Shown here: positions 1,572 through 62,311 of the stretch, piece by piece
How the letters are laid out: every line of letters begins with the position of its first letter
Numbering within the stretch: the first letter of the stretch is position 1
Origin: a bacterium
Lineage (GTDB): Bacteria > Patescibacteriota > Dojkabacteria > JAKAPS01
Direction of reading: 5' to 3'
NCBI GenBank assembly: GCA_021806925.1
Contig: JAKAPS010000004.1
Location: forward strand, 1,586-65,585
Length of the DNA stretch: 64,000 nt
The notes under the pieces: generated by a model
Seen by the model: the letters and a program-made list of their open reading frames with translations, nothing else
Databases searched by the model: none
What the model was told of the DNA's origin: nothing
Made by a program: the position numbers and the translations under genes

Positions 1572-3834
1572 TCGTCTTAATAACGCTATAATCCTTAGTA
1601 TTTAATCCATATTGTATCAATAACTCAGTTAATGACCTGCTCATACCAAGGTTCTGATAAAATAATTTTCCAACTGTATAATCATTATTTACAACAAATA
1701 TGTTTTTACCCATTGTTAAGTAGCTAGTCTCCTTAGTTGTATCACTTGAATATAGTTGTGCTGCATATAGGTATATTTGAGGATCTGCATATTTATATCT
1801 TTTCAATATATCATTCATATCACCCTCTGCCTTGTTCGTCTGACCTTGGAAATACAATATCTGATTATTACTCAGCCTTATATACAAACTCTGACTATCT
1901 AATTTCATAGCACTGGCGTTATAGCTAACAAGCTGACTCATTGATAGCGGGGGAGTAGAATTTGTACCTTGACTTGAACTACTCAAACCTACTTGAACTA
2001 GGAAGTATGGGTAATATGCATCTATAGGATTAAATCTTATCAAACTCTCAATTGATTGAACCTGAGGAGCAATTGATGCTGTCTGTGATTGATTAACTAA
2101 ACTATTTAGTATTCCTTGGAACATTTGATATCCGACAAAGAAATATATTGATAAAATAAGGGATAGAAGGGAAATTACACTTACACTGTATGAAAAGACA
2201 TTTCCAGAATTATTAAAGAACCTGTCAATATTTAATATCCTTACTCCAATTGCTAATATAACAAAGAAGAGGAATGTCAACTCAATTACGTGCATTACTG
2301 GATAAAATAACATAAAGAGAATAAATACAAACAATACTAACCCAACCTCAAAGGATTGAGTTGATCTTGTATCCTTTGTAGTAAGCAAATTTAATGACAT
2401 TCTGAATGCCTTGTATATAAAGAATAGAAAGATTAGTCCACCAATAATACCAGTAGCACTAAACATCCATATAAACTCACTTCCAGTTGTTGTAAATACC
2501 TGCCATGGTGCTAATTCAAATGCCTGTGAAACACTCTTAAAGTTCCCAAGCCCTATACCTGTAAATATATATGATTTAAATACATTTAGAGCTTGAATAT
2601 AGTTGGATTCCATTAGAGCCATTGAAAAGTTCCTTTCATCCAGAAATATTGGGTTATATGCAACAGTAAAAGAGTGATTAGTTAGAATATATGAAAGTAT
2701 AATAGTAATAACTGCAAAACCAATCAAATATACTCTATTCTCAACCCATTTGAATCTATTTTCAACTACATCCTTCCAAAGTAGTAGTGACAACTCTATT
2801 CCAAATACAACATATGCAAATTTTGAATATGTTATATATATCCCAATAGATATTATTATGCTTGAAATTAAAAACACTAGTTTTCTCTTTCCCCTTATAC
2901 TGAATATAGATTGGAGAGAGAATGGGAATACAATTAAACCAAACAAAGCCTGAAATATATTAAGATTTAAAAATGGATACATTAAATAATTTGATGGAAT
3001 CAAATAATTTTTAGTTTTTAAGAAATTATATAAACTTAAAAACACTGTTTTCTGTGTAAAAACATTATTTGCAAATGATATCTGAAGATATGACAATATT
3101 ACATATATAAAGATGATGCCTGATACGACGCTAAGTGCATTGAAAAATGTCCTTCTTGATTTTCTCCCATGAAAAAAATCATATGAAAGAATAAAGAATA
3201 GACCATAACTAATTAATTCTATTGTGAAAAGAATTGAGTTATATTTATAAACTGAAAATATATCAGATACCAAAACAAAAAACATGAATGCAAAAAATAC
3301 ATATAAAAATGATTTTGATATATATAAATTTCCCCTTAAATTTCTCAAGAAGAAGAAACCGGAAGCTAATAATGCAACAGTAAATACCTTTGGTTCAGTT
3401 AGGCTGATTCCTCCAAAAAATGATAACGCAACTAGTGAAACAAAAAACAATGCAAAGTATATTTTCTCTATTGTAGTAAAAAAAACAAGAAATTTTCTTT
3501 TTGGCTTATCTTCATAACTTTGATATTCCTCTTTATCACTGACACTATCTTTTTTATCAATCTCAACTACTGTTATACTTTCTTCCTCAATAATGACAGG
3601 TTCTTGGATAATCAATTCCTCATTTTTTTTATCTGTATTATGTTTTGTGTTTTTCATATTCCCATGACCTTTTGTTTTATCACTAGCCAAAGCACTCTTT
3701 GTAGACTTCATTGTTTCCTTCTTTACTTTATCGCTTTGTATAGTACCCTTTGTATTCTCTTTTAAGATATTTTTGAGGTTATTCGTGCTTTTCTTTGATG
3801 TTTTTTTAGATTTATTTTCTTTCACTAAAGACAA
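1558..3834 (-). CDS. large polytopic membrane protein, O-antigen ligase/polymerase-like (Wzy_C-type). It has a Lys-rich disordered N-terminus and a C-terminal extracytoplasmic domain.
   Basis: 758 aa. About 130 K/E/T-rich N-terminal residues are followed by at least 10 predicted TM helices and a hydrophilic C-terminal roughly 200 aa. It lies in the glycan locus. Confidence 0.45.
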   Translation of the reverse strand: MSLVKENKSKKTSKKSTNNLKNILKENTKGTIQSDKVKKETMKSTKSALASDKTKGHGNMKNTKHNTDKKNEELIIQEPVIIEEESITVVEIDKKDSVSDKEEYQSYEDKPKRKFLVFFTTIEKIYFALFFVSLVALSFFGGISLTEPKVFTVALLASGFFFLRNLRGNLYISKSFLYVFFAFMFFVLVSDIFSVYKYNSILFTIELISYGLFFILSYDFFHGRKSRRTFFNALSVVSGIIFIYVILSYLQISFANNVFTQKTVFLSLYNFLKTKNYLIPSNYLMYPFLNLNIFQALFGLIVFPFSLQSIFSIRGKRKLVFLISSIIISIGIYITYSKFAYVVFGIELSLLLWKDVVENRFKWVENRVYLIGFAVITIILSYILTNHSFTVAYNPIFLDERNFSMALMESNYIQALNVFKSYIFTGIGLGNFKSVSQAFELAPWQVFTTTGSEFIWMFSATGIIGGLIFLFFIYKAFRMSLNLLTTKDTRSTQSFEVGLVLFVFILFMLFYPVMHVIELTFLFFVILAIGVRILNIDRFFNNSGNVFSYSVSVISLLSLILSIYFFVGYQMFQGILNSLVNQSQTASIAPQVQSIESLIRFNPIDAYYPYFLVQVGLSSSSQGTNSTPPLSMSQLVSYNASAMKLDSQSLYIRLSNNQILYFQGQTNKAEGDMNDILKRYKYADPQIYLYAAQLYSSDTTKETSYLTMGKNIFVVNNDYTVGKLFYQNLGMSRSLTELLIQYGLNTKDYSVIKTINSL

Positions 3835-4162: not shown

Positions 4163-5173
4163 TTACACTTCCTGCAATGGATGGAAGTGCTTATGAGCTT
4201 CATATGCAATCTTATCTGATGTGTGAAGGTATCTGTTTGTAGTTTGAAGCGATTCATGTCCTAACAGAATTTGAATAGCTCCAACATTTGCACCATTTTC
4301 TGCCAGGTAGGTTGCAAATCCATGCCTTAGAGAGTGAGCTGATGTAGGAACGATTATTCCAAGTAACCTTCTATATGTAGCAATTCTTTCTTGCAGGTAA
4401 TTAGGTGATATTCTTTCTGATAATCTGTGATTCCGTCCTCCTCTTGTGGAAAGAAATAGTGCCTTACGTGAATCATCTCCTCTTAATTTTAGGTATTCTA
4501 AAATATAGTGGGTTGCTCTTTCTGTAAGGTATACAAATCTTTGTTTTTTACCTTTACCCATTATATATATTTTACCAGTATCATCTATATTTTCTCTGTT
4601 TATACGTATTAATTCAGATATTCTCATGCCAGTTGAAAAAAGGACTTCAAGCATTGCTCTGTTTCTTGATGCAACATATGGATTCTTCTCAAATGTACTT
4701 GGGTATTCAATTAATTTTATTAGAGTATCAAGCTCTGCAACTTGTGCTTCCTTTCTCTCCATCTTAATCAACTTTATACTGCTTGATGATATAGGGCTTG
4801 AGAAATCAAAATCGGATAAGAATTTAAAATATGATCGTAATGCACTAAGCATTCTGTTTACACTTCTTGATGCAAGTTTTTCACCGTAATCCTTTTTTTT
4901 ATGCTCACAAAATTCCTTATATTCCTCAATATATTCAGTTTCATGAGCTTTAAAAAATTCGCTTATCTTACCCAAATACAATCCGTCCCTAAGAAATCCT
5001 TTATACATTGTTATTGTCAGTTTTGTTATACCATTAAATTCAATATGATTTAAAAGCAAATACATTTCAAAAACAAATAGATCTCTCCTATAATTGTATA
5101 TAGTTTCCCTTGAGTAATTTTGATTTAATAACTCTATCAAGAACTCTTCTTTTTTATCTAATACTGTATTCAT
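4163..5173 (-). CDS. xerC: tyrosine site-specific recombinase, XerC/XerD family
   Basis: The C-terminus carries the catalytic signature RHGFATYLAENGANVGAIQILLGHESLQTTNRYLH (R..HxxR...Y). The N-terminus is the SAM-like core-binding domain. Confidence 0.85.
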   Translation of the reverse strand: MNTVLDKKEEFLIELLNQNYSRETIYNYRRDLFVFEMYLLLNHIEFNGITKLTITMYKGFLRDGLYLGKISEFFKAHETEYIEEYKEFCEHKKKDYGEKLASRSVNRMLSALRSYFKFLSDFDFSSPISSSSIKLIKMERKEAQVAELDTLIKLIEYPSTFEKNPYVASRNRAMLEVLFSTGMRISELIRINRENIDDTGKIYIMGKGKKQRFVYLTERATHYILEYLKLRGDDSRKALFLSTRGGRNHRLSERISPNYLQERIATYRRLLGIIVPTSAHSLRHGFATYLAENGANVGAIQILLGHESLQTTNRYLHTSDKIAYEAHKHFHPLQEV

Positions 5174-23795: not shown

Positions 23796-24977
23796 ATGGT
23801 CAATGGATTAAATGAGGCATATGGCAATGAATCTATATATAAACTGATTAATTTAGCATTAAAATCTATTAGTATCTTGAATAAGTTTACGCCTGATGAA
23901 AATACTAAGATAGAAGAAGTAATTGATAAGTATAGCAGTATAAACAAACGAGAATTTCATATTCAATATACCGAAGAAGATGGTCATATTCTTAACATAT
24001 TAGTAGGAGATGACGGTTCATTTGAAGCATACTATACAAAAAAAGATTGTGAAGAGCAACAAATAATTGGAATAAACAGAGTAAATAATGATGATAAAAC
24101 CTACTTAATAAATTTGAATGGAAAACACTTCTTATTAAAAATCGAATATTCAGAAGATGGAACACCAATAATACATGATACAATATCAAAATCAGATGAC
24201 AAATATAGACAACTAATATACCAAGTATTACTTGACTGGAAATATGCTTCAGATAAAATAATTGAAACATTTGATATTGCACTATCAATTGAATCGGACT
24301 TTAATCATATCCAAAACGAATTAGAAATACTATGTAAAGACGTGCTATATAAAATAGAAGGGGATGATGATGATGATGACGATGATGAGAATGACGATGA
24401 TGATGATGATGGGAATGACGATGATGATGATGATGGGAATGACGAGGACGATGATGGGAATGACGAGGACGATGATGATGGGAATGACGAGGACGATGAT
24501 GATGGGAATGACGAAGATGATGATGGGGGGGATGACGAGGATGTAAATGAAGATGATGGACATGATAGTGGTGAGAATACATATGATGGGATTGCTGCAT
24601 CAGGAAATATAACCAGAATGAGGGGTATAATGTATGCATATATTAGAATGGTAGCCGTATTAATAGATAATACTCTAATTGGGCCTAATTTTATTGAATA
24701 TATAGATCGGTTCAAAGATAAGAATATTCGTGCATCTATAAATAAAATTGATAATAGGTATGATAGATTTGAAGTAGTGTTTAATGAACCTTTTTTTATT
24801 AAATTTAACGTTAATGTTAATAATGTAGCAGATATTAATATTGAAAATATAGAAATAAATGCAAATGTAAATAAGTACCTACTTAATTTACTTTTAAATA
24901 ATAACCGTGCAGTCTTCAATTTATTTAGAACAATTTCACATATGATTGAGATAATAAAGGAATATAACAATGAATGA
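23796..24977 (+). CDS. hypothetical protein with a long poly-Asp/Glu tract (about 75 aa of D/E/G/N repeats). It is the first of three tandem distant paralogs.
   Basis: The 393-aa ORF is continuous through the repeat. It shares the ESIxxL N-terminal helix and the L..LLDW motif with the next two genes. Confidence 0.55.
   Translation: MVNGLNEAYGNESIYKLINLALKSISILNKFTPDENTKIEEVIDKYSSINKREFHIQYTEEDGHILNILVGDDGSFEAYYTKKDCEEQQIIGINRVNNDDKTYLINLNGKHFLLKIEYSEDGTPIIHDTISKSDDKYRQLIYQVLLDWKYASDKIIETFDIALSIESDFNHIQNELEILCKDVLYKIEGDDDDDDDDENDDDDDDGNDDDDDDGNDEDDDGNDEDDDDGNDEDDDDGNDEDDDGGDDEDVNEDDGHDSGENTYDGIAASGNITRMRGIMYAYIRMVAVLIDNTLIGPNFIEYIDRFKDKNIRASINKIDNRYDRFEVVFNEPFFIKFNVNVNNVADINIENIEINANVNKYLLNLLLNNNRAVFNLFRTISHMIEIIKEYNNE
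24361..24550 (+). repeat. imperfect tandem coding minisatellite with units of about 24-27 bp (gggaatgacgaggacgatgatgat). It encodes a (D/E)n-G-N acidic tract.
   Basis: Read directly. The antisense frames yield His-rich and Ser-rich mirror ORFs. Confidence 0.8.
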
Positions 24978-32608: not shown

Positions 32609-32718
32609 ATAACACTATTTTGCAACATATACAAAAAAAGACTGATATACTAATTCACTTTGAGTTTCCTTTCTAAATAAACCAAAGCTTTAAAGTATAT
32701 CAGCCTATTAACAAAAAT

Positions 32719-32752
32719 AAGGAACAAATAAATTGTTCCTTATTTAAGTATT
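32719..32752. terminator. hairpin aaataaggaacaa-ataaa-ttgttccttattt downstream of surface-protein paralog 1
   Basis: 13-bp stem with a T-run following on the minus strand. An identical copy lies at 37817-37852. Confidence 0.55.
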
Positions 32753-32760
32753 AATCAAAT

Positions 32761-33762
32761 TTACTTTACATTAAATACTACTCCAAGTTCTGGACCACAG
32801 TATCCATTTGCACAATCATGATTTGTTGATAAATAATATCCGTAACTATTTGCATCTACTTGATACTCTCCAGTTGAATTAAATGTAAATTCACTTACTA
32901 TTTGGAATGTGTTACCAGCAGAATATTTAGGATTATTCTTAGTTGCAATATATTGTATTGTACGTTGATATGGCGCAAAGTAGTTATATTCACCACTTGG
33001 AACTTTACTATTTAATTCATATGGAGTTTGACTTCCATTGGAGTTTATTTCATCTGCACTTATTCCTATATATTCATCTGGTATGTTTCTAACATGATTT
33101 ACTGTGTAGTCAGCTTTAACATCTAATACTGTTCCTGCAGGTATACTTATAGTATTCCCTTTTACACATATTATACTAGCTACTGGGTAACCTTGGTTAT
33201 AAACAGCATCAAAAACCATCTTTACACTGTAGTAATAATAATTATTAGATACTGTATAGGTTGAAGGACACTGTAATCCTGTTGGTGTTGGTGTCGGTGT
33301 TGCTACTGTAGGACTTACTGTTGGCGTTGATGTCGGTGTTCCTGTAGGACTTACTGTTGGTGTTGGCGTCGGTGTTGCTACTGTAGGACTTACTGTTGGT
33401 GTTGGCGTACTAGAAGTAGTACAAACTTCTTCTCGGTTTATTAATTGGCAGGAATTATTTGTTTTTGTTGGTGCAGTATTTCCTGTACTAGTTCCACCAC
33501 TTGTATTTGCACTTGAAAATACACTTCTGTCTCCACCGGAAACTCCGCTTGATATATTATTATATTGGGTTAAATGGTTTCTACCGTAATTACCCCCCAT
33601 AGAGAATATTCCTCTACTCTCTACGTTATTAATATAATTTCTGTTTAGAATCAAGAATGCAAAAACTGACAAAAGAGAAACAAAAGCAATTGATAATATC
33701 AATCCTTTCTTTAAACCTCCCTTTTCTTCAGTATCAATCTTTTTTATATTTATTGAACCCAT
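32761..33762 (-). CDS. membrane-anchored surface protein, paralog 1. It has an N-terminal signal anchor, a PT-rich mucin-like linker and a conserved roughly 130-aa C-terminal domain with a CxxxxC pair.
   Basis: The likely true start is the ATG (MGSINIKK) 6 nt after a consensus -10. The TTG start used by the track lies inside the -35. Its N- and C-termini are near-identical to 37863-38828. Confidence 0.6.
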   Translation of the reverse strand: MGSINIKKIDTEEKGGLKKGLILSIAFVSLLSVFAFLILNRNYINNVESRGIFSMGGNYGRNHLTQYNNISSGVSGGDRSVFSSANTSGGTSTGNTAPTKTNNSCQLINREEVCTTSSTPTPTVSPTVATPTPTPTVSPTGTPTSTPTVSPTVATPTPTPTGLQCPSTYTVSNNYYYYSVKMVFDAVYNQGYPVASIICVKGNTISIPAGTVLDVKADYTVNHVRNIPDEYIGISADEINSNGSQTPYELNSKVPSGEYNYFAPYQRTIQYIATKNNPKYSAGNTFQIVSEFTFNSTGEYQVDANSYGYYLSTNHDCANGYCGPELGVVFNVK

Positions 33763-33798
33763 AACTATATTATAGCACCCATAGTATAATAATGTCAA
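33763..33798 (-). promoter_or_regulatory. consensus sigma70-type promoter (TTGACA, 18 bp, TATAAT, 6 nt, ATG). The mRNA is leaderless or near-leaderless.
   Basis: Read directly on the minus strand. An identical copy sits upstream of paralog 2. Confidence 0.55.
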
Positions 33799-33806
33799 GG
33801 AGCTGA

Positions 33807-34745
33807 TTACTGCTTAAGCCTTTGTATAAATTCATTAGGAATATCAAGGGAAAATGAGTATTCCTTTCCTCTATATATAAATGTCAGACTTTTTGCAAGT
33901 AGATACATTCGTTTTTCATTTTTGGTCCCAGAATAGAGCTTATCACCTAATATAGGAGTCCCTAAGTATTTGAGATGAAGTCTAATTTGATGTGTTCTAC
34001 CAGTTTTCGGAGCTATTTTGAAAAGAATCATGTTATTCTTTATCTCGATTGGTGATATATATGATAGAGAATACTTAGATACTCTAAGTTTATTAGTAGA
34101 AAACATCATTTTTCTATACTCCCTTGGATTATGGGCTACATATCCCTCCACTTTAAATTCATTTTTATCACCATTTATATCTACAAATTTCCTTTCTATT
34201 GATAGCGATGAAGGTATTCCTATTGCAAGGTATTCCTTATACACCTCTCGTTTTGCAAACAACTCCATCAGCTCTCTTTGAGATTCATAGTTTTTAGCAA
34301 TTAAAAGTAACCCACTTGTATCTTTATCTATTCTATGAACAATATATGGTCTAGTTGTTACTGATTTTGGGAAAGACACGTCATTTAATCCGTATTTATA
34401 TACAAGCCAGTTAAGAACTGTATTTGCTCTTTCATTTTTAGATGTATGAACACTTACTCCTACTGGTTTATCTATGACCAGAAAATCATCATTTTCAAAA
34501 ATAATAGGAATATCCATATTTGCAGGTTCAATTGTTTTAAAACTGTTTTTAATTGATTCATTCTGTTGTAGAACAGCATCCAAAGTATTCTCTTGTATAT
34601 AGACTATATCACTGCTTCTTGTCATTTTTGAAGGGTTAGTAACAAATGTATTATTTAATTCAACCTTCCCATCACGGATAAGATGGAGTATTTGAGTTCT
34701 GGAAATTTGCGGATATTTTAAACTTGCGAGTTTATCGAATCTCAT
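33807..34745 (-). CDS. RluA-family pseudouridine synthase with an N-terminal S4-like domain
   Basis: HRIDKDTSGLLLIAKN catalytic-Asp motif. Confidence 0.85.
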   Translation of the reverse strand: MRFDKLASLKYPQISRTQILHLIRDGKVELNNTFVTNPSKMTRSSDIVYIQENTLDAVLQQNESIKNSFKTIEPANMDIPIIFENDDFLVIDKPVGVSVHTSKNERANTVLNWLVYKYGLNDVSFPKSVTTRPYIVHRIDKDTSGLLLIAKNYESQRELMELFAKREVYKEYLAIGIPSSLSIERKFVDINGDKNEFKVEGYVAHNPREYRKMMFSTNKLRVSKYSLSYISPIEIKNNMILFKIAPKTGRTHQIRLHLKYLGTPILGDKLYSGTKNEKRMYLLAKSLTFIYRGKEYSFSLDIPNEFIQRLKQ

Positions 34746-37621: not shown

Positions 37622-37816
37622 AACTTTTTGGATTATATATTAAAAGAAGGAAGAATGGAAGAAACAAAACACAAGTATATATAGATGAATAATAAAGATA
37701 AGAGAAAACAAATGCTGTATGCAGTATGTAACAAAAAAGACTGACATACTAATTCCCTTTGAGTTTCCTTTCTAAATAAACCAAAGCTTTAAAGTATATC
37801 AGTCTATTAACAGAAA

Positions 37817-37852
37817 TAAGGAACAATATATATCTTGTTCCTTATTTGAGTA
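37817..37852. terminator. hairpin identical to 32719-32752, downstream of surface-protein paralog 2
   Basis: Same inverted repeat, aaataaggaacaa...ttgttccttattt. Confidence 0.55.
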
Positions 37853-37862
37853 TTAATCTTAT

Positions 37863-38828
37863 TTACTGTACATTAAATACTATTCCAAGTTCTGGACCAC
37901 AGTATCCATTTGCACAATCATTATTTGTTGACAAATAATATCCATAACTATTTGCATCTATTTGATATTCGCCAGTTGAACCAAATATAAATTCGCTTGC
38001 TATCTGGAATGTGTTACCAGCAGAATATTTAGGATTATTCTTTGTTGCAATATATTGTATTGTACGTTGGTATGGTGCAAAATTTCTATATTCACTACCA
38101 GGTACCTTACTATTTAATTCGTATGGTGTCTGACTTCCATTTAGATTTATTTCATCTGCACTTATTCCTATATATTCATCAGATATATTTCTTGTATGAT
38201 TTATTGTGTAATATGCTTCAACATCAACAGTTGATCCTACTGGAATACTTATTTTAGTTCCATTAACACATATTCCATTTTTATCAGTTAATATTAATTT
38301 TACTGAATAGAAATAATTATTATCTGCATTAGTCATAATGTATGTTTCACTGCATTGTATAGCATTACTTGTTTTTTTACTTTGTATTTTATTAATTAGA
38401 TTTGAAAGATTATTACCAGCGTTACTGAAAATTTTATTTATATTTTGTGTGCCTTGTCCTTGTGACATTTTTACTGGTGTAGGATTACAATCTAATAATC
38501 TAACCAATACTATTGGAAGTGGGCATTTATTATTTGTAACAAAATTATTATTTAATGTTGTTTGTTGTTTCTTAGTAGAATTATCAGATGGTTTATAGTC
38601 AGTCCTTGAATTATATGTAACAACAGATGATATACCATTCGAGTTCCTACTATAATTACCACCCATAGAGAATACTCCCCTACTCTCTACATTGGATATA
38701 TAGTTTCTGTTTAATACTAGGAACGTAAATACTGATAAAAGAGAAACAAAAGCAATTGATAATATCAATCCTTTCTTTAAACCTCTCTTTTCTTCAGTAT
38801 CAATTTTTTTTATATCTATTGAACTCAT
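37863..38828 (-). CDS. membrane-anchored surface protein, paralog 2. It has the same N-terminal anchor and C-terminal domain as paralog 1 but a different stalk (N/S/T/K-rich, no PT repeat).
   Basis: Direct protein comparison with 32761-33762. The ATG is MSSIDIKK after an identical promoter. Confidence 0.6.
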   Translation of the reverse strand: MSSIDIKKIDTEEKRGLKKGLILSIAFVSLLSVFTFLVLNRNYISNVESRGVFSMGGNYSRNSNGISSVVTYNSRTDYKPSDNSTKKQQTTLNNNFVTNNKCPLPIVLVRLLDCNPTPVKMSQGQGTQNINKIFSNAGNNLSNLINKIQSKKTSNAIQCSETYIMTNADNNYFYSVKLILTDKNGICVNGTKISIPVGSTVDVEAYYTINHTRNISDEYIGISADEINLNGSQTPYELNSKVPGSEYRNFAPYQRTIQYIATKNNPKYSAGNTFQIASEFIFGSTGEYQIDANSYGYYLSTNNDCANGYCGPELGIVFNVQ

Positions 38829-38864
38829 AACTATATTATAGCACCTATAATATAATAATGTCAA
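38829..38864 (-). promoter_or_regulatory. consensus sigma70-type promoter, a duplicate copy (TTGACA, 18 bp, TATAAT, 6 nt, ATG)
   Basis: Sequence identical to 33763-33798 except for one spacer base. Confidence 0.55.
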
Positions 38865-38968
38865 GGAGCTGATTACTGCTTAAGCCTTTGTATAAATTCA
38901 TTGGGAATATCCCAGAATACTTACTGCAGTAGATATTGACAAATATATATATATAGTAACATTATGGT

Positions 38969-39136
38969 ATGAACGAAAATCAATATGAACCCTGTGAATC
39001 TGAAGATAGAAAAACTATTAGTAAAGTATCTAGTGCATGTTCTAATGCTGGTATGAACGAAAATCAATATGAACCCTGTGAATCTGAAGATAGAAAAACT
39101 ATTAGTAAAGTATTTAGTGCATGTTCTGATAAATGT
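38969..39136 (+). repeat. two near-identical 84-bp tandem copies, in frame
   Basis: Copy 1 spans 38969-39052 and copy 2 spans 39053-39136. They differ only in the last roughly 10 bp. Confidence 0.85.
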
Positions 39137-53613: not shown

Positions 53614-55110
53614 TTACTTTATTAATAATATATTTTCGTCCTTTATGAAGTCATTTACAGAATTAAGTTTATCCTCACTTGTAGAGTATATGCTGAAAGC
53701 AACATCTCCTTTATTTATGCTATCCCCTACATTCTTATAAAAATATATTCCTGCATCCTTATCATGAGGGCAACCAAGGGATAATGCTATCTGAATAGCT
53801 TTTTTATTATCTATTCCTACGATGCTTCCACTTGCACCTGAATGTATATCTATATATTTTGATTCAATAGAAATATCGCTCGAAGAAATACTTTCTGATC
53901 CTCCTTGCATTTTGCATATTCTTCTGAATTTTTGTAAAGCATTTAGACTTGTTAGAGTGTCCTTTGCCAATGAATAGCCGTTTTCAATACCTTTCACAGT
54001 GTTTATAAGTTGAGCTGCTACATTTAGAGACTCCTCTTCAAGCTGCATTGATCTTTTATCTGATTGCTCTAGAACATAAAGAGCTTCACGAATCTCAAGT
54101 TTTGCTCCTATTCCATTCCCGTCAATCCCCTTTGGCTCCCTTATATATGTATGTACTTTTATACCAAGTAACTCCCCTATTCTAACAAATCTATCACTTA
54201 TTTTCCTAGCATCATCAATATTCTTGACCTTTAAAGATTCCCCGCATGGAATATCTATTAACAAGGTATCAATACCTAATGCTACTTTTTTTGATAGTAT
54301 ACTAACAATATATTCACTATCATCTTCAACTCCTATTTGACTTACTATATGCATTATTTCATCGTCAAGAGGAACTATTCCTATACCGCCTATCCAAGCT
54401 AAGAATCCATTTTCATCATCTAAAAATTTCTGTAGTTTATCACCGCTATGGAATATTGACATTACTGATTCAAGAATATCACTGGTTCCTGCTGGAGTTG
54501 TTAGTGATCTTGATGATGTATTTGGCAGAGACATATCCAAACATGCACATATTGAAACTAGAATAGGAGTAATACCCTTACCTGCTACACCGCCTATTGA
54601 ATGTTTATCAACTATCGGAAATTTGCTAGTAAATTTATACCTCTTCCCAGTAGAAACCATTCCTTTGATGAAATAGACAATTTCATCATCACTAAATGTT
54701 GAATTGAAGAATGTTGAAACAAAAAACGTTTTTTCAACTTCATTCAATTTTTGATTCATAAAATCAGAAATTATACTTGTTATTTCATTTTCTGTTAAAT
54801 GACCCCCCTTAAGCTTTCTTCCAATAGCATTAACTGATTCAAGTGGAAGGTATGTATGGACATCAATACTATTCCCATCAATTAGTCCATATTTTTTAAT
54901 CATATTCAAAGGGAAAAAAAATCTGCTATTATCTGCATTTTTCATATCATCGATCTCAACTATTGAACCGAACTGTTCGCCTTTATATGAAAAAATTACT
55001 CCTCCTCCCTTTACTACACCTAATTTATCAGCTAATTCATTTGAAATATATACTCTGTTTATATTTTCTTCATCAATATCAATAACACCAACTATATATT
55101 TACTTACCAT
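53614..55110 (-). CDS. AMP phosphorylase / thymidine phosphorylase family (DeoA homologue) with a roughly 85-aa N-terminal extension
   Basis: DKHSIGGVAGKGITP matches the KHSTGGVGDK phosphate-binding motif. The 498-aa length and N-terminal extension fit archaeal/CPR-type AMP phosphorylase rather than the 440-aa bacterial thymidine phosphorylase. Confidence 0.65.
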   Translation of the reverse strand: MVSKYIVGVIDIDEENINRVYISNELADKLGVVKGGGVIFSYKGEQFGSIVEIDDMKNADNSRFFFPLNMIKKYGLIDGNSIDVHTYLPLESVNAIGRKLKGGHLTENEITSIISDFMNQKLNEVEKTFFVSTFFNSTFSDDEIVYFIKGMVSTGKRYKFTSKFPIVDKHSIGGVAGKGITPILVSICACLDMSLPNTSSRSLTTPAGTSDILESVMSIFHSGDKLQKFLDDENGFLAWIGGIGIVPLDDEIMHIVSQIGVEDDSEYIVSILSKKVALGIDTLLIDIPCGESLKVKNIDDARKISDRFVRIGELLGIKVHTYIREPKGIDGNGIGAKLEIREALYVLEQSDKRSMQLEEESLNVAAQLINTVKGIENGYSLAKDTLTSLNALQKFRRICKMQGGSESISSSDISIESKYIDIHSGASGSIVGIDNKKAIQIALSLGCPHDKDAGIYFYKNVGDSINKGDVAFSIYSTSEDKLNSVNDFIKDENILLIK

Positions 55111-56495
55111 AATTCATGAACTGTATTAAAATACGGTACTTCAACCTCATCAGCCATACCTTTCTCTTTTAAAGTTTCTGCAAATTGAAGTGATATGTCT
55201 TCATCACCATGCGTTACATATACTCTCTTGCCTATTTTACCGCCTTCCGCAGTACTCACCCAATTTAGTAAATCGTCTCTATCTCCATGAGCGCTAAATG
55301 ACCCCATTGTCCTTATTTCAGCATTGACTTTGACCTCTTCTCCGTATATAACCACGGATTTAGCTCCATCTTTAATCTCTCTACCTAGTGTTCCATTAGC
55401 TTGAAACCCTGGAAATATAACAGTATTCTTGGATAATGGCAGGTTCTTCTTCAAATATCCTAGTATCCTTCCGCCTGTACACATTCCAGATCCTGCAAGA
55501 ACAATATATGATTTTTTACTATCATGCTGTCCTTTCAGGGTATTTTTTGAAGCAATTTTCTTAGATTTTTGAGACATATTTACATATCTAAGATTATCTA
55601 CAAAGAATGGATTCTGCCCAGCTTCAAATATCTTCCTTGCATCTTCTCCAAACTCTTTAGGAAATTTCACAAAGACTTTAGTAACCTTACTTGCCATAGG
55701 AGAATCTAAATATATTGGTACATTTGGAATTCTATTTGCAATCTTCAATTTTCTTAATGTGTACAACAATTCCTGTGCTCTTTCAATTGAAAATGTCGGC
55801 ATTATTATATTTCCACCTCTTGATACAGTTTGTTTTATTGTATCAACAAATTCATTTTCACTTTCTTCTCTAGCCATATGTAAACTATTACCGTAGGTTG
55901 ATTCAATAACAAGGAAATCAACTTTTTTTGATATAGGGGTTATAAACTGAGATATACTTTGCCATTTACTTCCAACATCTCCAGAAAATATTACAGTCTT
56001 ATCTTCGATATCCATCACAATATATCCAGCACCTAATATATGCCCTGTATTCCTCAAAGAAAAATGAAAATCTTTCTCAAGCTCAATTACCTCACCAAAC
56101 TCAATTGTTTTACATTTTGAAAGAGATTCTACAACATCAGCGCTATTGTAAATTATTTTCTTCCCTGCGTTTATATTATCCTCCTTTTGTATTTTTGCAC
56201 TATCAAATGCAGTTATTTCAAAAATATCTTTACTAGGAGGTGTTAAATATATATTACCGCTAAACCCATGTTTAATAAGCTTTGGAATCAATCCGCAGTG
56301 GTCAAGATGAGAGTGCGTTAATATGAAGGTATTTATTTCTTTTGGATCAAAGAGAAAATCATCATAATTTCTATGCTCTAAATCCTCTTCTTGATAAGAA
56401 CCGCAATCAACCATTACCTTAAATCCATTATGGTCCAATATATAGCTACTTCCAGTAACTTCTCTATTAGCACCTAAAAATCTTATACTTGTCAT
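55104..56495 (-). CDS. beta-CASP family MBL-fold ribonuclease (CPSF73/Ysh1-like)
   Basis: ILTHSHLDHCG (HxHxDH), a beta-CASP insert and C-terminal SFSAHGD and VTHGDED motifs. Confidence 0.75.
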   Translation of the reverse strand: MTSIRFLGANREVTGSSYILDHNGFKVMVDCGSYQEEDLEHRNYDDFLFDPKEINTFILTHSHLDHCGLIPKLIKHGFSGNIYLTPPSKDIFEITAFDSAKIQKEDNINAGKKIIYNSADVVESLSKCKTIEFGEVIELEKDFHFSLRNTGHILGAGYIVMDIEDKTVIFSGDVGSKWQSISQFITPISKKVDFLVIESTYGNSLHMAREESENEFVDTIKQTVSRGGNIIMPTFSIERAQELLYTLRKLKIANRIPNVPIYLDSPMASKVTKVFVKFPKEFGEDARKIFEAGQNPFFVDNLRYVNMSQKSKKIASKNTLKGQHDSKKSYIVLAGSGMCTGGRILGYLKKNLPLSKNTVIFPGFQANGTLGREIKDGAKSVVIYGEEVKVNAEIRTMGSFSAHGDRDDLLNWVSTAEGGKIGKRVYVTHGDEDISLQFAETLKEKGMADEVEVPYFNTVHELW

Positions 56496-56731
56496 AAATT
56501 CATTTTACACTATACCATAAAAATATATAAGGGAGAAGATAATTTGTATTGTAGCTTGCAATTATTAATAAAACACATAAAAGAATCTATTTTCAATACA
56601 GAAATATTTGAAATATTAGTAATATAATATCTTTCCATTTTGAAATTTCCATTTTCACAATATGTGAATTAGTAACTATTTCTAATTCACCACATCTCTT
56701 TTAACAAACTATTCTAATATATATTGGAAAC

Positions 56732-56774
56732 AAAAATACTTGACACAAAACTTGACAGAAGGCTTGACAGAAAT
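56732..56774 (+). repeat. 41-bp element with three TTGACA hexamers at 12-bp spacing (acTTGACAcaaaacTTGACAgaaggcTTGACAg). It lies upstream of fic and is copy 1 of a direct repeat pair.
   Basis: Read directly. It also provides a -35 box for fic. Confidence 0.8.
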
Positions 56775-56791
56775 ATATACTGACAATACAA

Positions 56792-57805
56792 ATGTTTTTA
56801 CCTAAATATGAATATACAAACACAATTATATCCAACACGAATACAATAGAAAGACTTTATGGACAATTGGAAAGTATACATATTCCAAAGAATTTAATGC
56901 TCAATCTTCAAAATGAGAATATAATCACATCAACATATTCATCAAACAAAATTGAAGGCAATCCGTTAACCCATTTGGAAGTAACAAATTTGTTATTAGG
57001 TGAAAGAGTCCCAGTAAACAGAGCAGAAAAAGAAATAACTAATTATTTCGATATTTTGAAAAGTATCAACAAAAGTATTGATAAAGAGATTAATATTCAA
57101 CTTATGCTTGAATTTCATAATAAGTTGTTAACAGGTATAAATGATGAGATAAAAGGTAAGATAAGAAATGTCGAAGTTGTTGTTGGGAGATTTGATGAGA
57201 ATTCTCAATTAATAGCAAGACATATACCTCCATTCTCTACAAGAGATAAAATATCAGAGACACTTAATGACTTGTTTTCATGGGTCAATACAGAAAATGA
57301 TATTGTTAAAGTACTAAAAATCGGTATATTTCATCATCAATTTGAATATATACATCCTTTTGAAGATGGCAATGGTAGAATAGGTAGATTACTTTCATCA
57401 TTGCTTTTCCTAAAATACAATTACGCAATAAACAAGTATTTCATACTTGATGACTATTATGATATTGATAAGATTGAATATTCAAATAAATTACATTCTG
57501 CAGATTTTGGTGATGAGACTAAATGGCTTGAATACTTCACAAATGGTATAATTTATTCACTACAATCATCAATAGATAAATTAAATAAAGGATTATCAAA
57601 GTTATCAATTTCATTAAGACCAACAAAGAAGGAAGAAGAAGTTTTGCATCTTATTCAAAAGTACCATGAAATAACTTCACAAAATATATCATCAGAAATG
57701 GGAATTTCAAGACAACAAGCATTCAATCTTCTTAAATCTCTTACAGAGAAAGGATATATTGAAAGAAGAAATAAATCTAAGAATACATATTATGTCCTCT
57801 TATAG
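56792..57805 (+). CDS. fic: Fic-family protein (adenylyltransferase-type fold) with an N-terminal inhibitory SxxxEG motif and a C-terminal winged HTH
   Basis: HPFEDGNGRIGR is the HPFx(D/E)GNGR motif. SSNKIEGN matches (S/T)xxxE(G/N). The C-terminal segment LHLIQKYHEITSQNISSEMGISRQQAFNLLKSLTEKGYI is a wHTH. Confidence 0.9.
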   Translation: MFLPKYEYTNTIISNTNTIERLYGQLESIHIPKNLMLNLQNENIITSTYSSNKIEGNPLTHLEVTNLLLGERVPVNRAEKEITNYFDILKSINKSIDKEINIQLMLEFHNKLLTGINDEIKGKIRNVEVVVGRFDENSQLIARHIPPFSTRDKISETLNDLFSWVNTENDIVKVLKIGIFHHQFEYIHPFEDGNGRIGRLLSSLLFLKYNYAINKYFILDDYYDIDKIEYSNKLHSADFGDETKWLEYFTNGIIYSLQSSIDKLNKGLSKLSISLRPTKKEEEVLHLIQKYHEITSQNISSEMGISRQQAFNLLKSLTEKGYIERRNKSKNTYYVLL

Positions 57806-57879
57806 CGAAGTTAAAAAGTTGCATAATATATACTACCCTAACATATATAAACTCTAATCATGTTATTTATTAATGTATT

Positions 57880-57921
57880 AAAAATACTTGACACAAAACT
57901 TGACAGAAAGCTTGACAAAAG
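57880..57921 (+). repeat. second copy of the triple-TTGACA 41-bp element (39/41 identical), 75 bp downstream of fic
   Basis: Read directly. Confidence 0.8.
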
Positions 57922-57932
57922 ATTGCTATAAA

Positions 57933-59276
57933 TCACACTTGTCTTACCTTTGATTTTGAGCATACTAATTTAATTAGTTCTTCTCTTGTATTTAATTCCG
58001 GATCTTCTAGAACCTTAGATAGAAGCGTTTCAAGTTCCTCCCCTATTTCCTTTCCACTATAGCCAAGCTGTTTTAAGTCGTCTCCATTAATTGCAAGATC
58101 TTTTCTTGTTAATACATTACTCTTTCTTTTTACTTCTTCTATTCTTTTCTTAAATGATAAAAGATTATCATATGTTGTATTAAGAGGGTTTGACTTTATA
58201 TCTGCTTCTCTTAGTAGAAATAGCTCATTCAGGAAATCCTCTGATGGTATTTTTGAAAGAAATCTTCTTACACTAGAATCCTTCCAATCCTCAGAATAAT
58301 TGAACATATGCATCTTTATTAAAAGGATTATTTTCAAAATATCCTTTTTAGGGAATTTCAATCTCTTTAATATATCTTTAGCCATATCGCTTCCAACTAT
58401 CTCATGTGAATAGAAATGCTCCCCCTCTTTGGTTCTTGGTTTACCAATATCATGAAGTAGAGATACAAGCCTTACATCTTTTTGCGCCTTATCACACGAA
58501 TGTATAAGGTGCATATATACAGTTTCTGTATGGAATTTGTTCTGTTCAATATGAATTCCCTCAAGAAGTTCAGGCATAATTACCTCCAATATACCTGACT
58601 CCCTTAATAACTCAATTCCATAACTTGGAATTGGTGAATCGTTCAATATTTTTATAAGTTCATCCCTTATTCTTTCTACTGAGATTTTTAATATATCCTT
58701 TGCAAAATATTTTATTGCATCAAATGTATCACTATCAATTGAAAATTCAAGAATAGAAGCAAAACGTACTGCTCTCATACTTCTTAAATAGTCCTCAAGC
58801 ATTCTTTCCTTTGGGTTACCAGTTGCCTTAACTAACTTCTTTTGTATATCATCTACACCTCCATAGAGATCTATAACCTTATCCAAGTTATTTTTAACAT
58901 ATTCCTCAATAGTTTTGTAATTGCCAAAATCATCCCCAATTTCAAGTGCCATTGAATTTATTGTAAAATCTCTACGCTTCAAATCATCATATATATTGTC
59001 TGAATATGAAACATCATCGGGGTGTCTTGAATCTGAATAAACCCTATCGGATCTAAAGGTAGTTATTTGAATATTATCTACGACAATCGTACCAAACTTT
59101 GCCCCAACATCATTTGCTTTAGGGAATATTTCCATCAACTCATCTGGATGAGCTGAAGTAGCTAAATCAATATCATGAGTAGCTCTTCCTATTATTGAAT
59201 CTCTAATATATCCGCCTACAACATACAAACTAAATCCGTTTTGTTTGAGAGCAGAGATAATATTGTCCATCTTCAA
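57933..59276 (-). CDS. cca: CCA-adding tRNA nucleotidyltransferase (PolyA_pol head plus HD domain)
   Basis: GGYIRDSIIGRATHDIDLA nucleotidyltransferase head and HD domain LLHDIGKP. Both tRNAs in the window lack an encoded CCA, which is consistent with this call. Confidence 0.8.
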   Translation of the reverse strand: MKMDNIISALKQNGFSLYVVGGYIRDSIIGRATHDIDLATSAHPDELMEIFPKANDVGAKFGTIVVDNIQITTFRSDRVYSDSRHPDDVSYSDNIYDDLKRRDFTINSMALEIGDDFGNYKTIEEYVKNNLDKVIDLYGGVDDIQKKLVKATGNPKERMLEDYLRSMRAVRFASILEFSIDSDTFDAIKYFAKDILKISVERIRDELIKILNDSPIPSYGIELLRESGILEVIMPELLEGIHIEQNKFHTETVYMHLIHSCDKAQKDVRLVSLLHDIGKPRTKEGEHFYSHEIVGSDMAKDILKRLKFPKKDILKIILLIKMHMFNYSEDWKDSSVRRFLSKIPSEDFLNELFLLREADIKSNPLNTTYDNLLSFKKRIEEVKRKSNVLTRKDLAINGDDLKQLGYSGKEIGEELETLLSKVLEDPELNTREELIKLVCSKSKVRQV

Positions 59277-59314
59277 TTCCTAGTATATTATACAACAATT
59301 TATATACAAACATT

Positions 59315-59390
59315 AATTTATTTAAGAATATAGCAACTTCTGTTATTTTTCATATCAATTACCTCAAATCCTTTTTCGATTGATAACTTA
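59315..59390. repeat. 76-bp exact copy of the cysS 3' end plus 15 bp of its downstream flank. It is the left direct repeat bracketing the ATPase cassette.
   Basis: Identical to 60836-60911. A further 13-bp match (ttaaagagtaatc) follows after a short indel. Confidence 0.85.
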
Positions 59391-59534
59391 AAGAGTAATC
59401 TTAAAAAAGAGACTACTTTGAAATATATTCAGAAAATAGGAATTTGAGTAATCAGATGCAGATATCACTTCATTTAATCGACAAATTGTAATATACACTT
59501 GACAAATTAACCCCTTATTTTGTAAAGTATACCT

Positions 59535-60712
59535 ATGTATATACACCGCTTTGTAGAAAAATCATTAGAAAACCTTTTAAGGGATCCAAAATTTTTATTC
59601 TCCTTGGGGCACGTCAAGTAGGGAAAACCACCCTTATTGAACCCTTAGTTCGAAAGAGAATTGGATTATTACTCAACTGCGATATTGATATTGATAAATC
59701 AAGATTGTTAGCTTCTAGTTCGCTACACCCCTTTGAAGCTATGAAATTTTTTGGTAATCCAAAACTTCTAGTCATTGATGAAGCACAAAACTTACCAGAA
59801 ATTGGAAGAATTGTAAAAGGTTGGTATGATGCTCGTGTTACTACAAAGATAATACTACTTGGGTCATCAAGCCTTAATTTATTAGACCTTACTGCAGAAC
59901 CTCTTACTGGAAGAAATGAAAAAATCTATTTAACACCACTGTTGTTTAGTGAAATTCTCAAGAATCAATCATGGCTTACTCCAGAAGTAACAAAATCGAT
60001 TCTTGAAGAACAATTTAAAGATCAAATTCAAACCTTGCTTTTACAACAAATGGTATATGGTAGCTATCCGGAAGCAATTACAACAGTTGATAAAGAGAGG
60101 TATCTACTAAATTTGACATCCGATTATTTACTCAAAGACGTCTTACAAAACGGACTGGTAAAATCTCCTGAGCCAGTAAAAAAACTTTTATCTATGATTG
60201 CATATCAAGCAGGAAATGAAGTATCTATTAATGAACTTGCTATGAATTTACACACCTCTAGACAAACAATAGAGCGATATATAGAACTACTTGAAAGGTC
60301 GTATGTAATTTTTAAAGTACATGCATTTAGTACAAACCAACGAAAGGAAATTGTTAAAAACTCAAAAATATTCTTTTGGGATACAGGTGTACGTAATGCA
60401 CTTCTTAAAGAATTTTCTCTTTCACCGTTCAGGTCTGATATAGGTTCACTGTTTGAAAACTGGGTTGTTTCAGAAGTAGCCAAACTTAATTTAATAAAAG
60501 GAGATAAAAATAATATTTACTTCTGGCGCAAAAGAGATGGCAGTGAAGTGGACTTAATTGTAAAAGGAACAAATACATTCAAGGCATATGAAATGAAGTG
60601 GTCAAAACTAAACATAACACAATCAGCAAAAAGTTTTTCTAATACCTACAATATACCAGTTAAAGTTATCACAAAAGATACAATACTGGACTTGTTGTGG
60701 GAAGAAAAATAG
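59535..60712 (+). pseudogene. AAA+ ATPase of the DUF4143 type (Walker A GARQVGKTTL), disrupted by a frameshift in an A5T5 homopolymer (ccAAAAATTTTTatt) at about 59588-59597
   Basis: The ATG at 59535 encodes MYIHRFVEKSLENLLRDPKFLF and then stops. The rest (ILLGARQVGKTTLIEPL...) is in the -1 frame with no in-frame ATG. The track ORF 59705-60712 is the 3' part, starting at TTG. Confidence 0.6.
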
Positions 60713-60835
60713 AGCTCCTAGATATATTTACAGATATAAGAAAAATTATTCAGTAATATAACAGATGGCTTATTTTCCTTTTTGTATATACAGTTGTGAT
60801 ACTATTCCATAACGCATATTTAATATTTATACAAA

Positions 60836-60911
60836 TATACAAACATTAATTTATTTAAGAATATAGCAACTTCTGTTATTTTTCATATCAATTACCTCAA
60901 ATCCTTTTTCT
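60836..60911. repeat. right direct repeat, the native 3' end of cysS
   Basis: Identical to 59315-59390. Confidence 0.85.
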
Positions 60912-62311
60912 TCTAAATCCTGTTTTAATTTATCACTTAAAGAGTAATCCCCGATATTTTTCGCTTCACTCCTTCTATTAATCAGTTCGTTATACTCCTC
61001 ATCCTTACTATTTGATGCTTCAACCATTAAATTAAAATCAAAACCCAATACACTTCCTATTGCATATATATTAGATATCTTTTCTTTAGATGCCATATCA
61101 TTCCTTTTTAAAATGTCATGAATTAATGCAATAGCTTTTGATGTATTAATATCATCTTCCAGGCACTCTTTTAATTTAACTAAATATTCATTTGAAAACA
61201 TATCATACACTGGAGATACACTGCCGTGAGTACTTGTACTCCGTAATGGAGTGGCAGAATCATCCTCTGCAAATAATCTTATCTGCCTTATTATTCCATA
61301 TATAGCTCTGTACGCATTAAGAATTGCTTCTTTAGAGAAATCTATCATGCTCCTATAATTTCCTGATAGAAATAGATATCGTAAAGCTTCAGGAGCATAT
61401 TTTGTGTTAGCTTTTAATTCAGAATTTAATATACTTTCAACATCATCAAGTGTATAGAAATTGTTTTTGCTTTTACTCATCTTTTCACCATTTATTGTTA
61501 TAAAAGCATTATGCAACCAATAATGTACAACTTGTTTTCCTGCTATTGAATCTGATTGAGCTATTTCATTTGTATGATGAGGAAATATCAAATCACTTCC
61601 GCCAGTATGAATGTCAAATTCATCTCCTAAGTATTTCATACTCATTGCACTACATTCAATATGCCAACCAGGATAACCTTTTCCCCATGGAGAATCCCAC
61701 AGCATTTGGTGTGTCGGATCATCAAGCTGCCATAATCTGAAATCCTTTTGCGACTTCTTTTCTACAGATTCATTTAGATTATCCCTTGAATTATCCATAA
61801 GTTCATCTGTTTTCTGTCCAGATAGGTTATAGTAAAGAGGAAATTTAGTTACATCAAAATATATTGCCTCATCTGTCCTATATGCATATCCTTTTTCTAA
61901 AAGTATCTCGATTAATTTTATCTGCTCTTGAATATGATCGGTAGCTTTAGCTAAAACACTTGGTGGTAATATATTTAATCTATCCCTATCTTTTAAAAAT
62001 ACATCAGTATATTTTTTTGCAATTGCCCATACATCTAAATTATCAATTTTTGCTTGTTTTTCCAGTTTATCTTCTCCCTTATCTATATCCCCTACAATAT
62101 GACCTACATCCGTTATATTCATTACATTGAATACATCATATCCTAGAAATCTGAAACTTCTAACCAAAATATCAGCAAAAATGAATGCACGCCAATTGCC
62201 TATTGTAGGGTTTGAATATACAGTTGGTCCACAGCTATATATCTTAACCATTCCTTTAACAATTGGTTTAAATTCTTCTAGCTGTTTTGATAATGTGTTG
62301 TATAATTTCAT
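60851..62311 (-). CDS. cysS: cysteinyl-tRNA synthetase whose HIGH motif reads TIGN
   Basis: CGPTVY...TIGNWRA in place of HIGHAR. KMSKS is present as GEKMSKSKNN. The zinc ligand WHIECS is present. Confidence 0.85.
   Translation of the reverse strand: MKLYNTLSKQLEEFKPIVKGMVKIYSCGPTVYSNPTIGNWRAFIFADILVRSFRFLGYDVFNVMNITDVGHIVGDIDKGEDKLEKQAKIDNLDVWAIAKKYTDVFLKDRDRLNILPPSVLAKATDHIQEQIKLIEILLEKGYAYRTDEAIYFDVTKFPLYYNLSGQKTDELMDNSRDNLNESVEKKSQKDFRLWQLDDPTHQMLWDSPWGKGYPGWHIECSAMSMKYLGDEFDIHTGGSDLIFPHHTNEIAQSDSIAGKQVVHYWLHNAFITINGEKMSKSKNNFYTLDDVESILNSELKANTKYAPEALRYLFLSGNYRSMIDFSKEAILNAYRAIYGIIRQIRLFAEDDSATPLRSTSTHGSVSPVYDMFSNEYLVKLKECLEDDINTSKAIALIHDILKRNDMASKEKISNIYAIGSVLGFDFNLMVEASNSKDEEYNELINRRSEAKNIGDYSLSDKLKQDLEEKGFEVIDMKNNRSCYILK

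Follow-up and report, generated by a model that had tools for sequence, protein, structure and literature searches.

Fic proteins that end in a domain of the winged helix-turn-helix (wHTH) type are already known to regulate themselves, from two studied proteins. CccR of Yersinia pseudotuberculosis joins an N-terminal Fic domain to a C-terminal HTH domain, through which it represses its own promoter; its sites at the -35 and -10 boxes are two palindromes bound by a back-to-back dimer, and the protein is a type VI secretion effector (PMC9755527). SoFic of Shewanella oneidensis (SO_4266) binds as a dimer to the 100 bp immediately upstream of its start codon (bioRxiv 10.64898/2026.07.09.737422); the portion of that preprint consulted gives no operator sequence and contains neither 'operator' nor 'palindrom'. 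SoFic and EcSofic of Escherichia coli are class II Fic proteins with an SxxxEG inhibitory helix and a C-terminal wHTH, and an antitoxin, AS1, has been described for EcSofic (PMC12249575). Here, we analysed a stretch of 64,000 nucleotides (hereafter the window) from a Dojkabacteria genome (contig JAKAPS010000004.1), in which a fic gene of the same domain architecture is bracketed by two direct copies of a 41-bp element, A1 upstream and A2 downstream. We consider it somewhat probable that A1 is the promoter-operator of a SoFic-like Fic-wHTH protein and that A2 is a recent duplicate of the operator alone, produced by the insertion of fic.

The fic gene (56792..57805, + strand) encodes a 337-residue class II Fic protein of the AMP-transferase type, annotated as a SoFic-like single-gene defence or toxin gene. 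The Pfam Fic domain covers residues 100-204 (E = 7.4e-17), and the C-terminal wHTH at residues 280-334 is matched by the Pfam families TrmB, MarR_2, MarR and HTH_24. The catalytic motif H188-P-F-E-D-G-N-G-R-I-G-R199 agrees with HxFx(D/E)GNGRxxR and is invariant in 35 homologues. N-terminal to the Fic core, on the same polypeptide, S51-N-K-I-E55-G56 agrees with the (S/T)xxxE(G/N) definition of the class II inhibitory motif (PMC9755527), with S51, E55 and G56 invariant in the same 35 homologues. The PADLOC SoFic model PDLC03963 matches residues 10-335 of the protein over profile positions 23-350 of 361 (E = 1.6e-51), the NCBIfam SoFic equivalog model NF046030 gives 67.6 bits, below its curated cut-off of 550, and the SoFic chains in the PDB align over residues 146-332 only (E = 1.5e-10). 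By these matches, the protein belongs to a subfamily distinct from the S. oneidensis SoFic equivalogs. Plasmid and phage collections yielded Fic relatives below 30% identity only, and nothing on this subfamily.

A1 (56732..56772) and A2 (57880..57920) both lie on the + strand, and each is a triple CTTGACA array with a period of exactly 12 bp, the hexamers TTGACA starting at 56740, 56752 and 56764 in A1 and at 57888, 57900 and 57912 in A2. A1 starts 60 nt and ends 19 nt ahead of the fic ATG (56792), and A2 begins 74 nt past the end of fic (57805) and stops 12 nt short of the stop codon (57933-57935) of the convergent cca gene. In the window the 41-mer is found at these two places and nowhere else, with two mismatches between the copies (39/41 identical), and it was matched in none of 100 dinucleotide-preserving shuffles. 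The pattern TTGACA-N6-TTGACA is confined to A1 and A2 (four matches against 0.52 expected), which also hold 6 of the 11 CTTGACA heptamers in the window. An earlier note, made from the sequence alone, had described 41-bp direct repeats bracketing fic, and these counts bear it out and mark the array as a genuine, non-random cis element; the many further copies that the note had named as telling against its view were not seen within the 64-kb window, which holds the two copies only.

The two-copy arrangement is also present in an independent assembly from the same sample (Logan contig L001), and since A1 and A2 differ at two positions they are distinct loci rather than an assembly duplicate. Both mismatches fall outside the hexamers, so that all six hexamers are intact, and the spacers of the two copies are identical at 9 of 10 positions. 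The boundaries are sharp, the similarity reaching only 56776 and 57923 in gapped local alignment. The flanks on either side match no better than shuffled sequence (the observed score was reached by 350 of 500 shuffles for the upstream flanks and 264 of 500 for the downstream flanks), and the C-terminus of cca has its normal length; a decayed tandem duplication was rejected on these grounds.

A1 overlaps the predicted fic promoter (56752..56781, + strand). Its middle hexamer forms the -35 box (TTGACA, 56752-56757), followed by an 18-nt spacer, within which the third hexamer lies, and by the -10 box TATACT (56776-56781). With 11 of 12 consensus matches, this was the top sigma-70-like site in 56400-58100 in a promoter scan, in agreement with the earlier proposal that the upstream copy supplies the -35 box of fic. 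A leader of at most about 10 nt is predicted ahead of the ATG.

Genomes were scanned, one per species, for CTTGACA-N5-CTTGACA-N5-CTTGACA. At least 119 loci were found, most of them generic 12-bp tandem repeats and many of them coding, so that their number as such tells little. Among the matches listed, a Fic-wHTH homologue lies downstream of the array on the same strand in at least 8 loci, and in 7 of those 8 it starts within about 70 bp. Near-array homologues of 47-54% identity were found at six loci (L007, L031, L066, L073, L097 and L103, of which L031 ends at a contig edge), and L016 is a weaker case, with a homologue of 32% identity about 380 bp from the array. The closest relatives were fetched by exact protein look-up (P0002, 69% identity; P0003, 67%; P0008, 58%), and three further metagenome orthologue loci (L128-L130) were added. 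All 12 fetched orthologue loci (47-69% identity) carry a triple TTGACA/TTTACA/TTGTCA array of 12-bp period over the fic promoter, ending 17-32 nt ahead of the ATG. These loci come from several phyla and include Endomicrobiellum metagenome-assembled genomes (MAGs), one gammaproteobacterial MAG and unclassified metagenome contigs, and the neighbourhood of fic differs in each of them. When the orthologues were aligned on the array, the hexamer positions carried about 2 bits and the spacers about 1 bit. In the commonest layout, the third hexamer is followed by 16-17 nt, a -10 box, 6-7 nt and the ATG, which leaves the promoter almost without a leader. The arrays of the window, L007 and L066 lie one 12-nt unit nearer the ATG, so that the middle hexamer becomes the -35 box and the third falls in the spacer. 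The retention of three hexamers, of which only one can serve as a -35 box, points to a binding array and not merely a promoter element. The upstream array is thus a family feature of this fic subfamily.

A wider set of 80 Fic-wHTH loci, the window included, was compared in order to see which protein might read the array. Of the 80 upstream regions, 15 contained a periodic array scoring at least 0.8, as against none of 80 intragenic controls. Distant Fic-wHTH subfamilies (25-35% identity) use other words, such as ATAGTGAAAA, TTGCGCGA, GTCATAAAA, TAATCCG and GATAsTATCA, besides TTGTCA, in repeats of two or three units with a period of 10-13 bp. Lineage-specific direct repeats of this kind stand upstream of fic at L132, L139, L152, L155, L156, L164-L166, L183 and L198 and likewise at L150, L170, L179, L184, L202, L159 and L167. 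In most of the distant subfamilies, the word co-varies with the recognition helix of the wHTH: SRQQ(A/S)(F/H)NLL goes with TTGACA or TTTACA, SRQAALKEL with TTGTCA, TN(R/K)T(V/I)INR with TAGTGAAA, ALGTVRQ with TAATCCG and S(S/T)ATASRDL with GATA(C/G)TATCA. The TTGTCA case, L132, retains the SRQ-A helix core despite only 29% overall identity.

The array is conserved, the word tracks the helix, and CccR and SoFic bind their own promoters; from these together we infer that Fic would bind A1 and repress its own gene, the operator that its wHTH reads being very probably A1. It is to the Fic wHTH, on which the earlier note had remarked, that the comparison points. Short direct repeats about one helical turn apart that overlap a -35 box, as here, are also typical of the operators of winged-helix regulators such as OmpR/PhoB-type boxes and of plasmid iterons, which have a period of 10-11 bp against 12 bp in A1 and A2. 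Neither comparison finds support at the locus: it contains no response regulator gene that could be the response-regulator-type reader suggested earlier, and it has no rep gene and a cumulative GC skew that runs monotonically through it, at odds with iterons of plasmid type. Compared with CccR, which represses its own gene through sites at -35 and -10, the putative self-repression here would act through three direct repeats of 12-bp period instead of two palindromes, and the protein is a distantly related one encoded in a stand-alone insertion in a genome of the candidate phyla radiation (CPR) type, whereas CccR is a secretion effector.

Several points weigh against A1 as an operator for Fic. 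Shared ancestry is a confounder of the tie between recognition helix and repeat word. CccR binds palindromes and the known Fic-wHTH proteins are two-fold symmetric dimers, whereas the array consists of direct repeats, and no inverted repeat involving the array was reported at A1 or A2, so that a palindromic operator of the CccR type is absent there. Moreover, the word of the array is the exact sigma-70 -35 consensus, and RNA polymerase could therefore be its main reader. According to this alternative, several -35 boxes in a row would tune the promoter or trap the polymerase, and A2 would be a -35-only decoy or promoter fragment. The use of either the middle or the third hexamer as the -35 box, depending on the orthologue, is in keeping with it, as is the occurrence of triple CTTGACA arrays upstream of dnaG in at least 16 Chloroflexota loci and upstream of Rrf2- and MerR-like genes. 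However, the triple repeats of the distant subfamilies (ATAGTGAAAA, TAATCCG, GATAsTATCA) are unlike a -35 box and track the recognition helix, and Fic-wHTH proteins have been shown experimentally to bind their own promoters. We therefore regard a polymerase-only role of the array as improbable.

As to the arrays away from fic, the conserved triple array of 12-bp period in L006 (863-893) has a TTGACA-17-TAAAAT promoter on one side and the start of the primase gene dnaG on the other, and is followed by a GC-rich hairpin. Fifteen other loci, all from Chloroflexota/Limnocylindria, share the sequence surrounding it (L021, L030, L038, L042, L047, L054, L061, L062, L070, L088, L090, L105, L106, L109 and L120); they were grouped on that shared sequence, the position of dnaG having been examined in L006 only. 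The dnaG-associated array is a putative leader or operator element unrelated to Fic. A five-copy array with the 12-bp period (L009, 4907-4961) stands just upstream of a gene resembling the Rrf2 type, and a three-copy array (L050, minus strand, 2541-2571 as oriented) just upstream of one resembling the MerR type, the N-terminus having been judged by eye in both cases. Other regulators that control their own genes may use arrays of this design as operators.

Unlike A1, the downstream copy has no parallel in the family. In none of the other 79 Fic-wHTH loci, which include 8 orthologue loci with downstream sequence, does the array found there recur, leaving the window as the sole case among 80; a second array as a family trait was rejected accordingly. 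With its three hexamers intact, A2 should bind whatever binds A1. This raises the alternative of a selected operator pair, in which Fic would bind both copies and A2 would strengthen repression by looping over 1.15 kb, or would act as a protein roadblock where fic and cca converge, the genome being one that lacks intrinsic terminators. The six intact hexamers, the placing of both mismatches outside them, the binding of the same factor expected at A2 and the lack of a terminator between fic and cca are all compatible with such a pair. On the other hand, two mismatches would both miss the hexamers by chance with a probability of about 0.23, so that their position is uninformative, and the spacers of A1 and A2 are nearly identical although spacers vary freely among the orthologues, which indicates a recent event and not long-term selection. 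Given also the 0/79 count, a looping pair as a designed feature, one of the options first raised for this locus, is not upheld, and we think a selected pair unlikely, if still the most serious competitor to a recent duplicate.

Nor does A2 look like a promoter. The antisense promoter into cca that had been suggested for it would use the three consensus -35 hexamers, which point into cca, together with a TATAAA at 57927-57932. This TATAAA is 9 nt from the third hexamer and 21 nt from the second, outside the range of 16-18 nt; no correctly spaced -10 box exists at A2, and the promoter scan gave no match there. We rejected the antisense promoter on this -35/-10 spacing, and with neither a stable fold nor an Rfam family in support, antisense transcription from A2 is very improbable. 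A terminator, a significant fold (z = -0.95) and an Rfam match (E up to 1) were likewise lacking between fic and cca, and an RNA element or terminator there was rejected.

An open reading frame of 23 codons (MLFINVLKILDTKLDRKLDKRLL, 57860-57931, + strand) crosses A2, the 12-nt period being translated into an (L-D-x-K)3 repeat. Lacking both a ribosome-binding site and any counterpart in the orthologues, it is probably fortuitous. For the same reasons, an AS1-like antitoxin downstream of fic was rejected, the AS1 antitoxin of EcSofic having no conserved equivalent here.

Flanking repeats were further compared in the 58 loci, the window included, that have at least 300 nt on both flanks. Four of these 58 loci have direct repeats of at least 20 nt on the two sides of fic, the inverted-repeat control giving 1 of 58, and in the window alone is the flanking repeat the operator array. 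Flanking direct repeats of any sequence are thus only weakly a trait of the Fic family. Intergenic direct repeats, heterogeneous and not operator arrays, stand on either side of two distant fic genes: in L138 a perfect 25-nt pair (723-747 / 2081-2105, period 1358) and in L154 a 119-nt pair of 80% identity (3407-3525 / 5037-5155, period 1630), the fic gene of L154 appearing frameshifted.

The genomic setting bears on how A2 may have arisen. In the nearest relatives, the gene order is ybaB-recR-cysS-cca-ychF, with cysS and cca overlapping and cca and ychF 1-3 nt apart. The window retains ybaB-recR-cysS and an intact housekeeping cca gene for the CCA-adding enzyme (57933..59276, - strand), which is convergent with fic and has a C-terminus of normal length. 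Between cca and ychF it holds fic on the opposite strand and then, on the cca strand, a beta-CASP/metallo-beta-lactamase (MBL) RNase gene (55104..56495, - strand), divergent from fic, and an AMP-phosphorylase-like gene (53614..55110, - strand). This pair is absent from the cca-ychF junction in the two nearest relatives and is therefore a further addition to the ancestral operon in this lineage. The tight recR-cysS-cca-ychF junctions of the relatives imply that fic lies within inserted DNA, with A2 at its very edge. The organism is an uncultured, low-GC bacterium of the CPR type. The closest cca homologues are only 46-49% identical, and named homologues at about 38-48% identity include Dojkabacteria/WS6 and other Patescibacteria; the nearest relatives (cca 47-49%) have cysS-cca-ychF without the insert and are too distant to define the insertion junctions.

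A second guest gene interrupts the same operon on the opposite strand, between cysS and cca. It encodes a DUF4143/AAA_14 ATPase (59535..60712, + strand) that matches the PADLOC candidate PDC-S01 (E = 8.1e-99) and has its own CTTGACA -35 box at 59498-59504. Translation starts at the ATG at 59535, and the frame shifts in an A4T5 run near 59589-59598, just before the Walker A motif (GARQVGKT); the frameshift could reflect a pseudogene, a sequencing error or slippage. The gene is flanked by a direct-repeat pair of 120-129 nt, in which the last 33 or so codons and the stop codon of cysS are duplicated. The left copy (59281..59400), just upstream of the cca start, is a pseudo 3' end of cysS, and in the right copy (60821..60949) lie the stop codon and the functional 3' end of the cysS gene (60851-62311, - strand). 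A perfect core of 76 nt (59302-59377 = 60835-60910) is accompanied by mismatches and a 16-nt gap in the remainder, and this combination is the mark that one crossover leaves when its partners resemble each other without being identical. The break of the Logan contig falls within the 76-nt core, as would be expected of a true repeat.

Two defence-type guest genes therefore split a conserved operon, each flanked by direct repeats, with no recombinase within about 10 kb. The matches of fic to the PADLOC SoFic model and of its neighbour to PDC-S01 bear out the earlier idea of a defence island. As for the suggestion that the repeats mark a cassette boundary, it is supported insofar as fic is inserted relative to the recR-cysS-cca-ychF order of the relatives and direct repeats bracket the neighbouring guest gene too, but no recombinase lies nearby and no strain variant is on record.

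The arrangement invites comparison with single-crossover genomic islets bounded by attL/attR-type direct repeats, in which a foreign gene likewise sits in a conserved operon between repeats. Flanking direct repeats are present here as the 41-bp pair around fic and the 120-129-nt pair around the ATPase gene, and the ATPase cassette further resembles such islands in duplicating the 3' end of its target gene. Unlike the islets, the units here have no integrase, are 1.1-1.5 kb in size and carry a single gene, and in the case of fic the repeat is the gene's own operator, not target DNA. A related alternative is that fic forms an excisable cassette of 1148 bp with the arrays as its recombination sites, served by a recombinase encoded elsewhere or by host recombination, with the ATPase cassette behaving likewise. 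The interruption of one operon by two adjacent opposite-strand genes of defence type, each with direct repeats, the different neighbourhood of fic in every genome and the 4/58 against 1/58 excess of flanking direct repeats would all suit a mobile unit. They are offset by the missing recombinase, by the unrelated sequences of the two repeat pairs, by the flanking repeats at other loci, which are not operator arrays and one of which resembles a generic repetitive extragenic palindromic (REP)-like element, and by the single array of the orthologues, with no solo array or empty site seen. On balance, an excisable cassette of this kind is decidedly unlikely.

Returning to the preferred reading, in which A1 is an operator and A2 its recent duplicate, the steps would be as follows. 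The C-terminal winged helix of Fic would bind the three TTGACA repeats that overlap the -35 box and the spacer, and Fic bound at A1 would occlude RNA polymerase, so that a potentially toxic AMP-transferase would be held at a low and self-limited level. A fic unit of about 1.15 kb would have recombined into the ancestral cca-ychF junction and left A2 behind; either a circular or tandem intermediate would have undergone one crossover through the array, or a copy slightly longer than the unit would have been inserted. Without a -10 box, A2 would drive nothing, and any looping or roadblock effect would be a by-product and not a design of the family. For A2, a scar of recombination or duplication at the edge of the cassette is the likeliest explanation.

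The insertion part of this account meets objections as well. A single crossover through the array would presuppose an array already sitting beside cca. When cca and the beta-CASP gene were looked up by exact protein, the matches led back to the same population or were lacking, and neither a strain variant nor an empty site came to light. Finally, between about 46 kb and 63.3 kb the window encodes housekeeping proteins, Fic and the ATPase, and no recombinase lies within about 10 kb.

As far as the searched literature shows, the triple-direct-repeat operator of the subfamily, the co-variation of word and helix, and the operator-flanked arrangement have not been described. The comparison provides a testable putative operator for a widespread SoFic-like subfamily, consisting of three TTGACA at a 12-bp period over the -35 box of a nearly leaderless promoter, and suggests a possible general rule, by which the triple direct repeats differ from lineage to lineage in step with the recognition helix of the wHTH. 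Such a rule would pose a structural puzzle, as two-fold symmetric dimers would be reading head-to-tail sites. The locus is also a useful case for how reduced genomes of the CPR type gain defence genes. A bolder conjecture is that operator arrays double as recombination sites and that SoFic-type cassettes in CPR-type bacteria move without a recombinase of their own, as circles of about 1.1 kb, through their own operator (the ATPase cassette through a captured gene end). We hold this to be a long shot; if true, it would define a new minimal kind of mobile defence cassette.

Other repeats were noted elsewhere in the window. Two duplicated segments about 5.1 kb apart (32621-33845 and 37720-38911) share about 90% identity, and an 82-nt tandem pair at 38965-39130 is 98% identical. 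A long GAT/GAC-rich repeat run extends over 24334-24591 and would encode acidic residues if coding.

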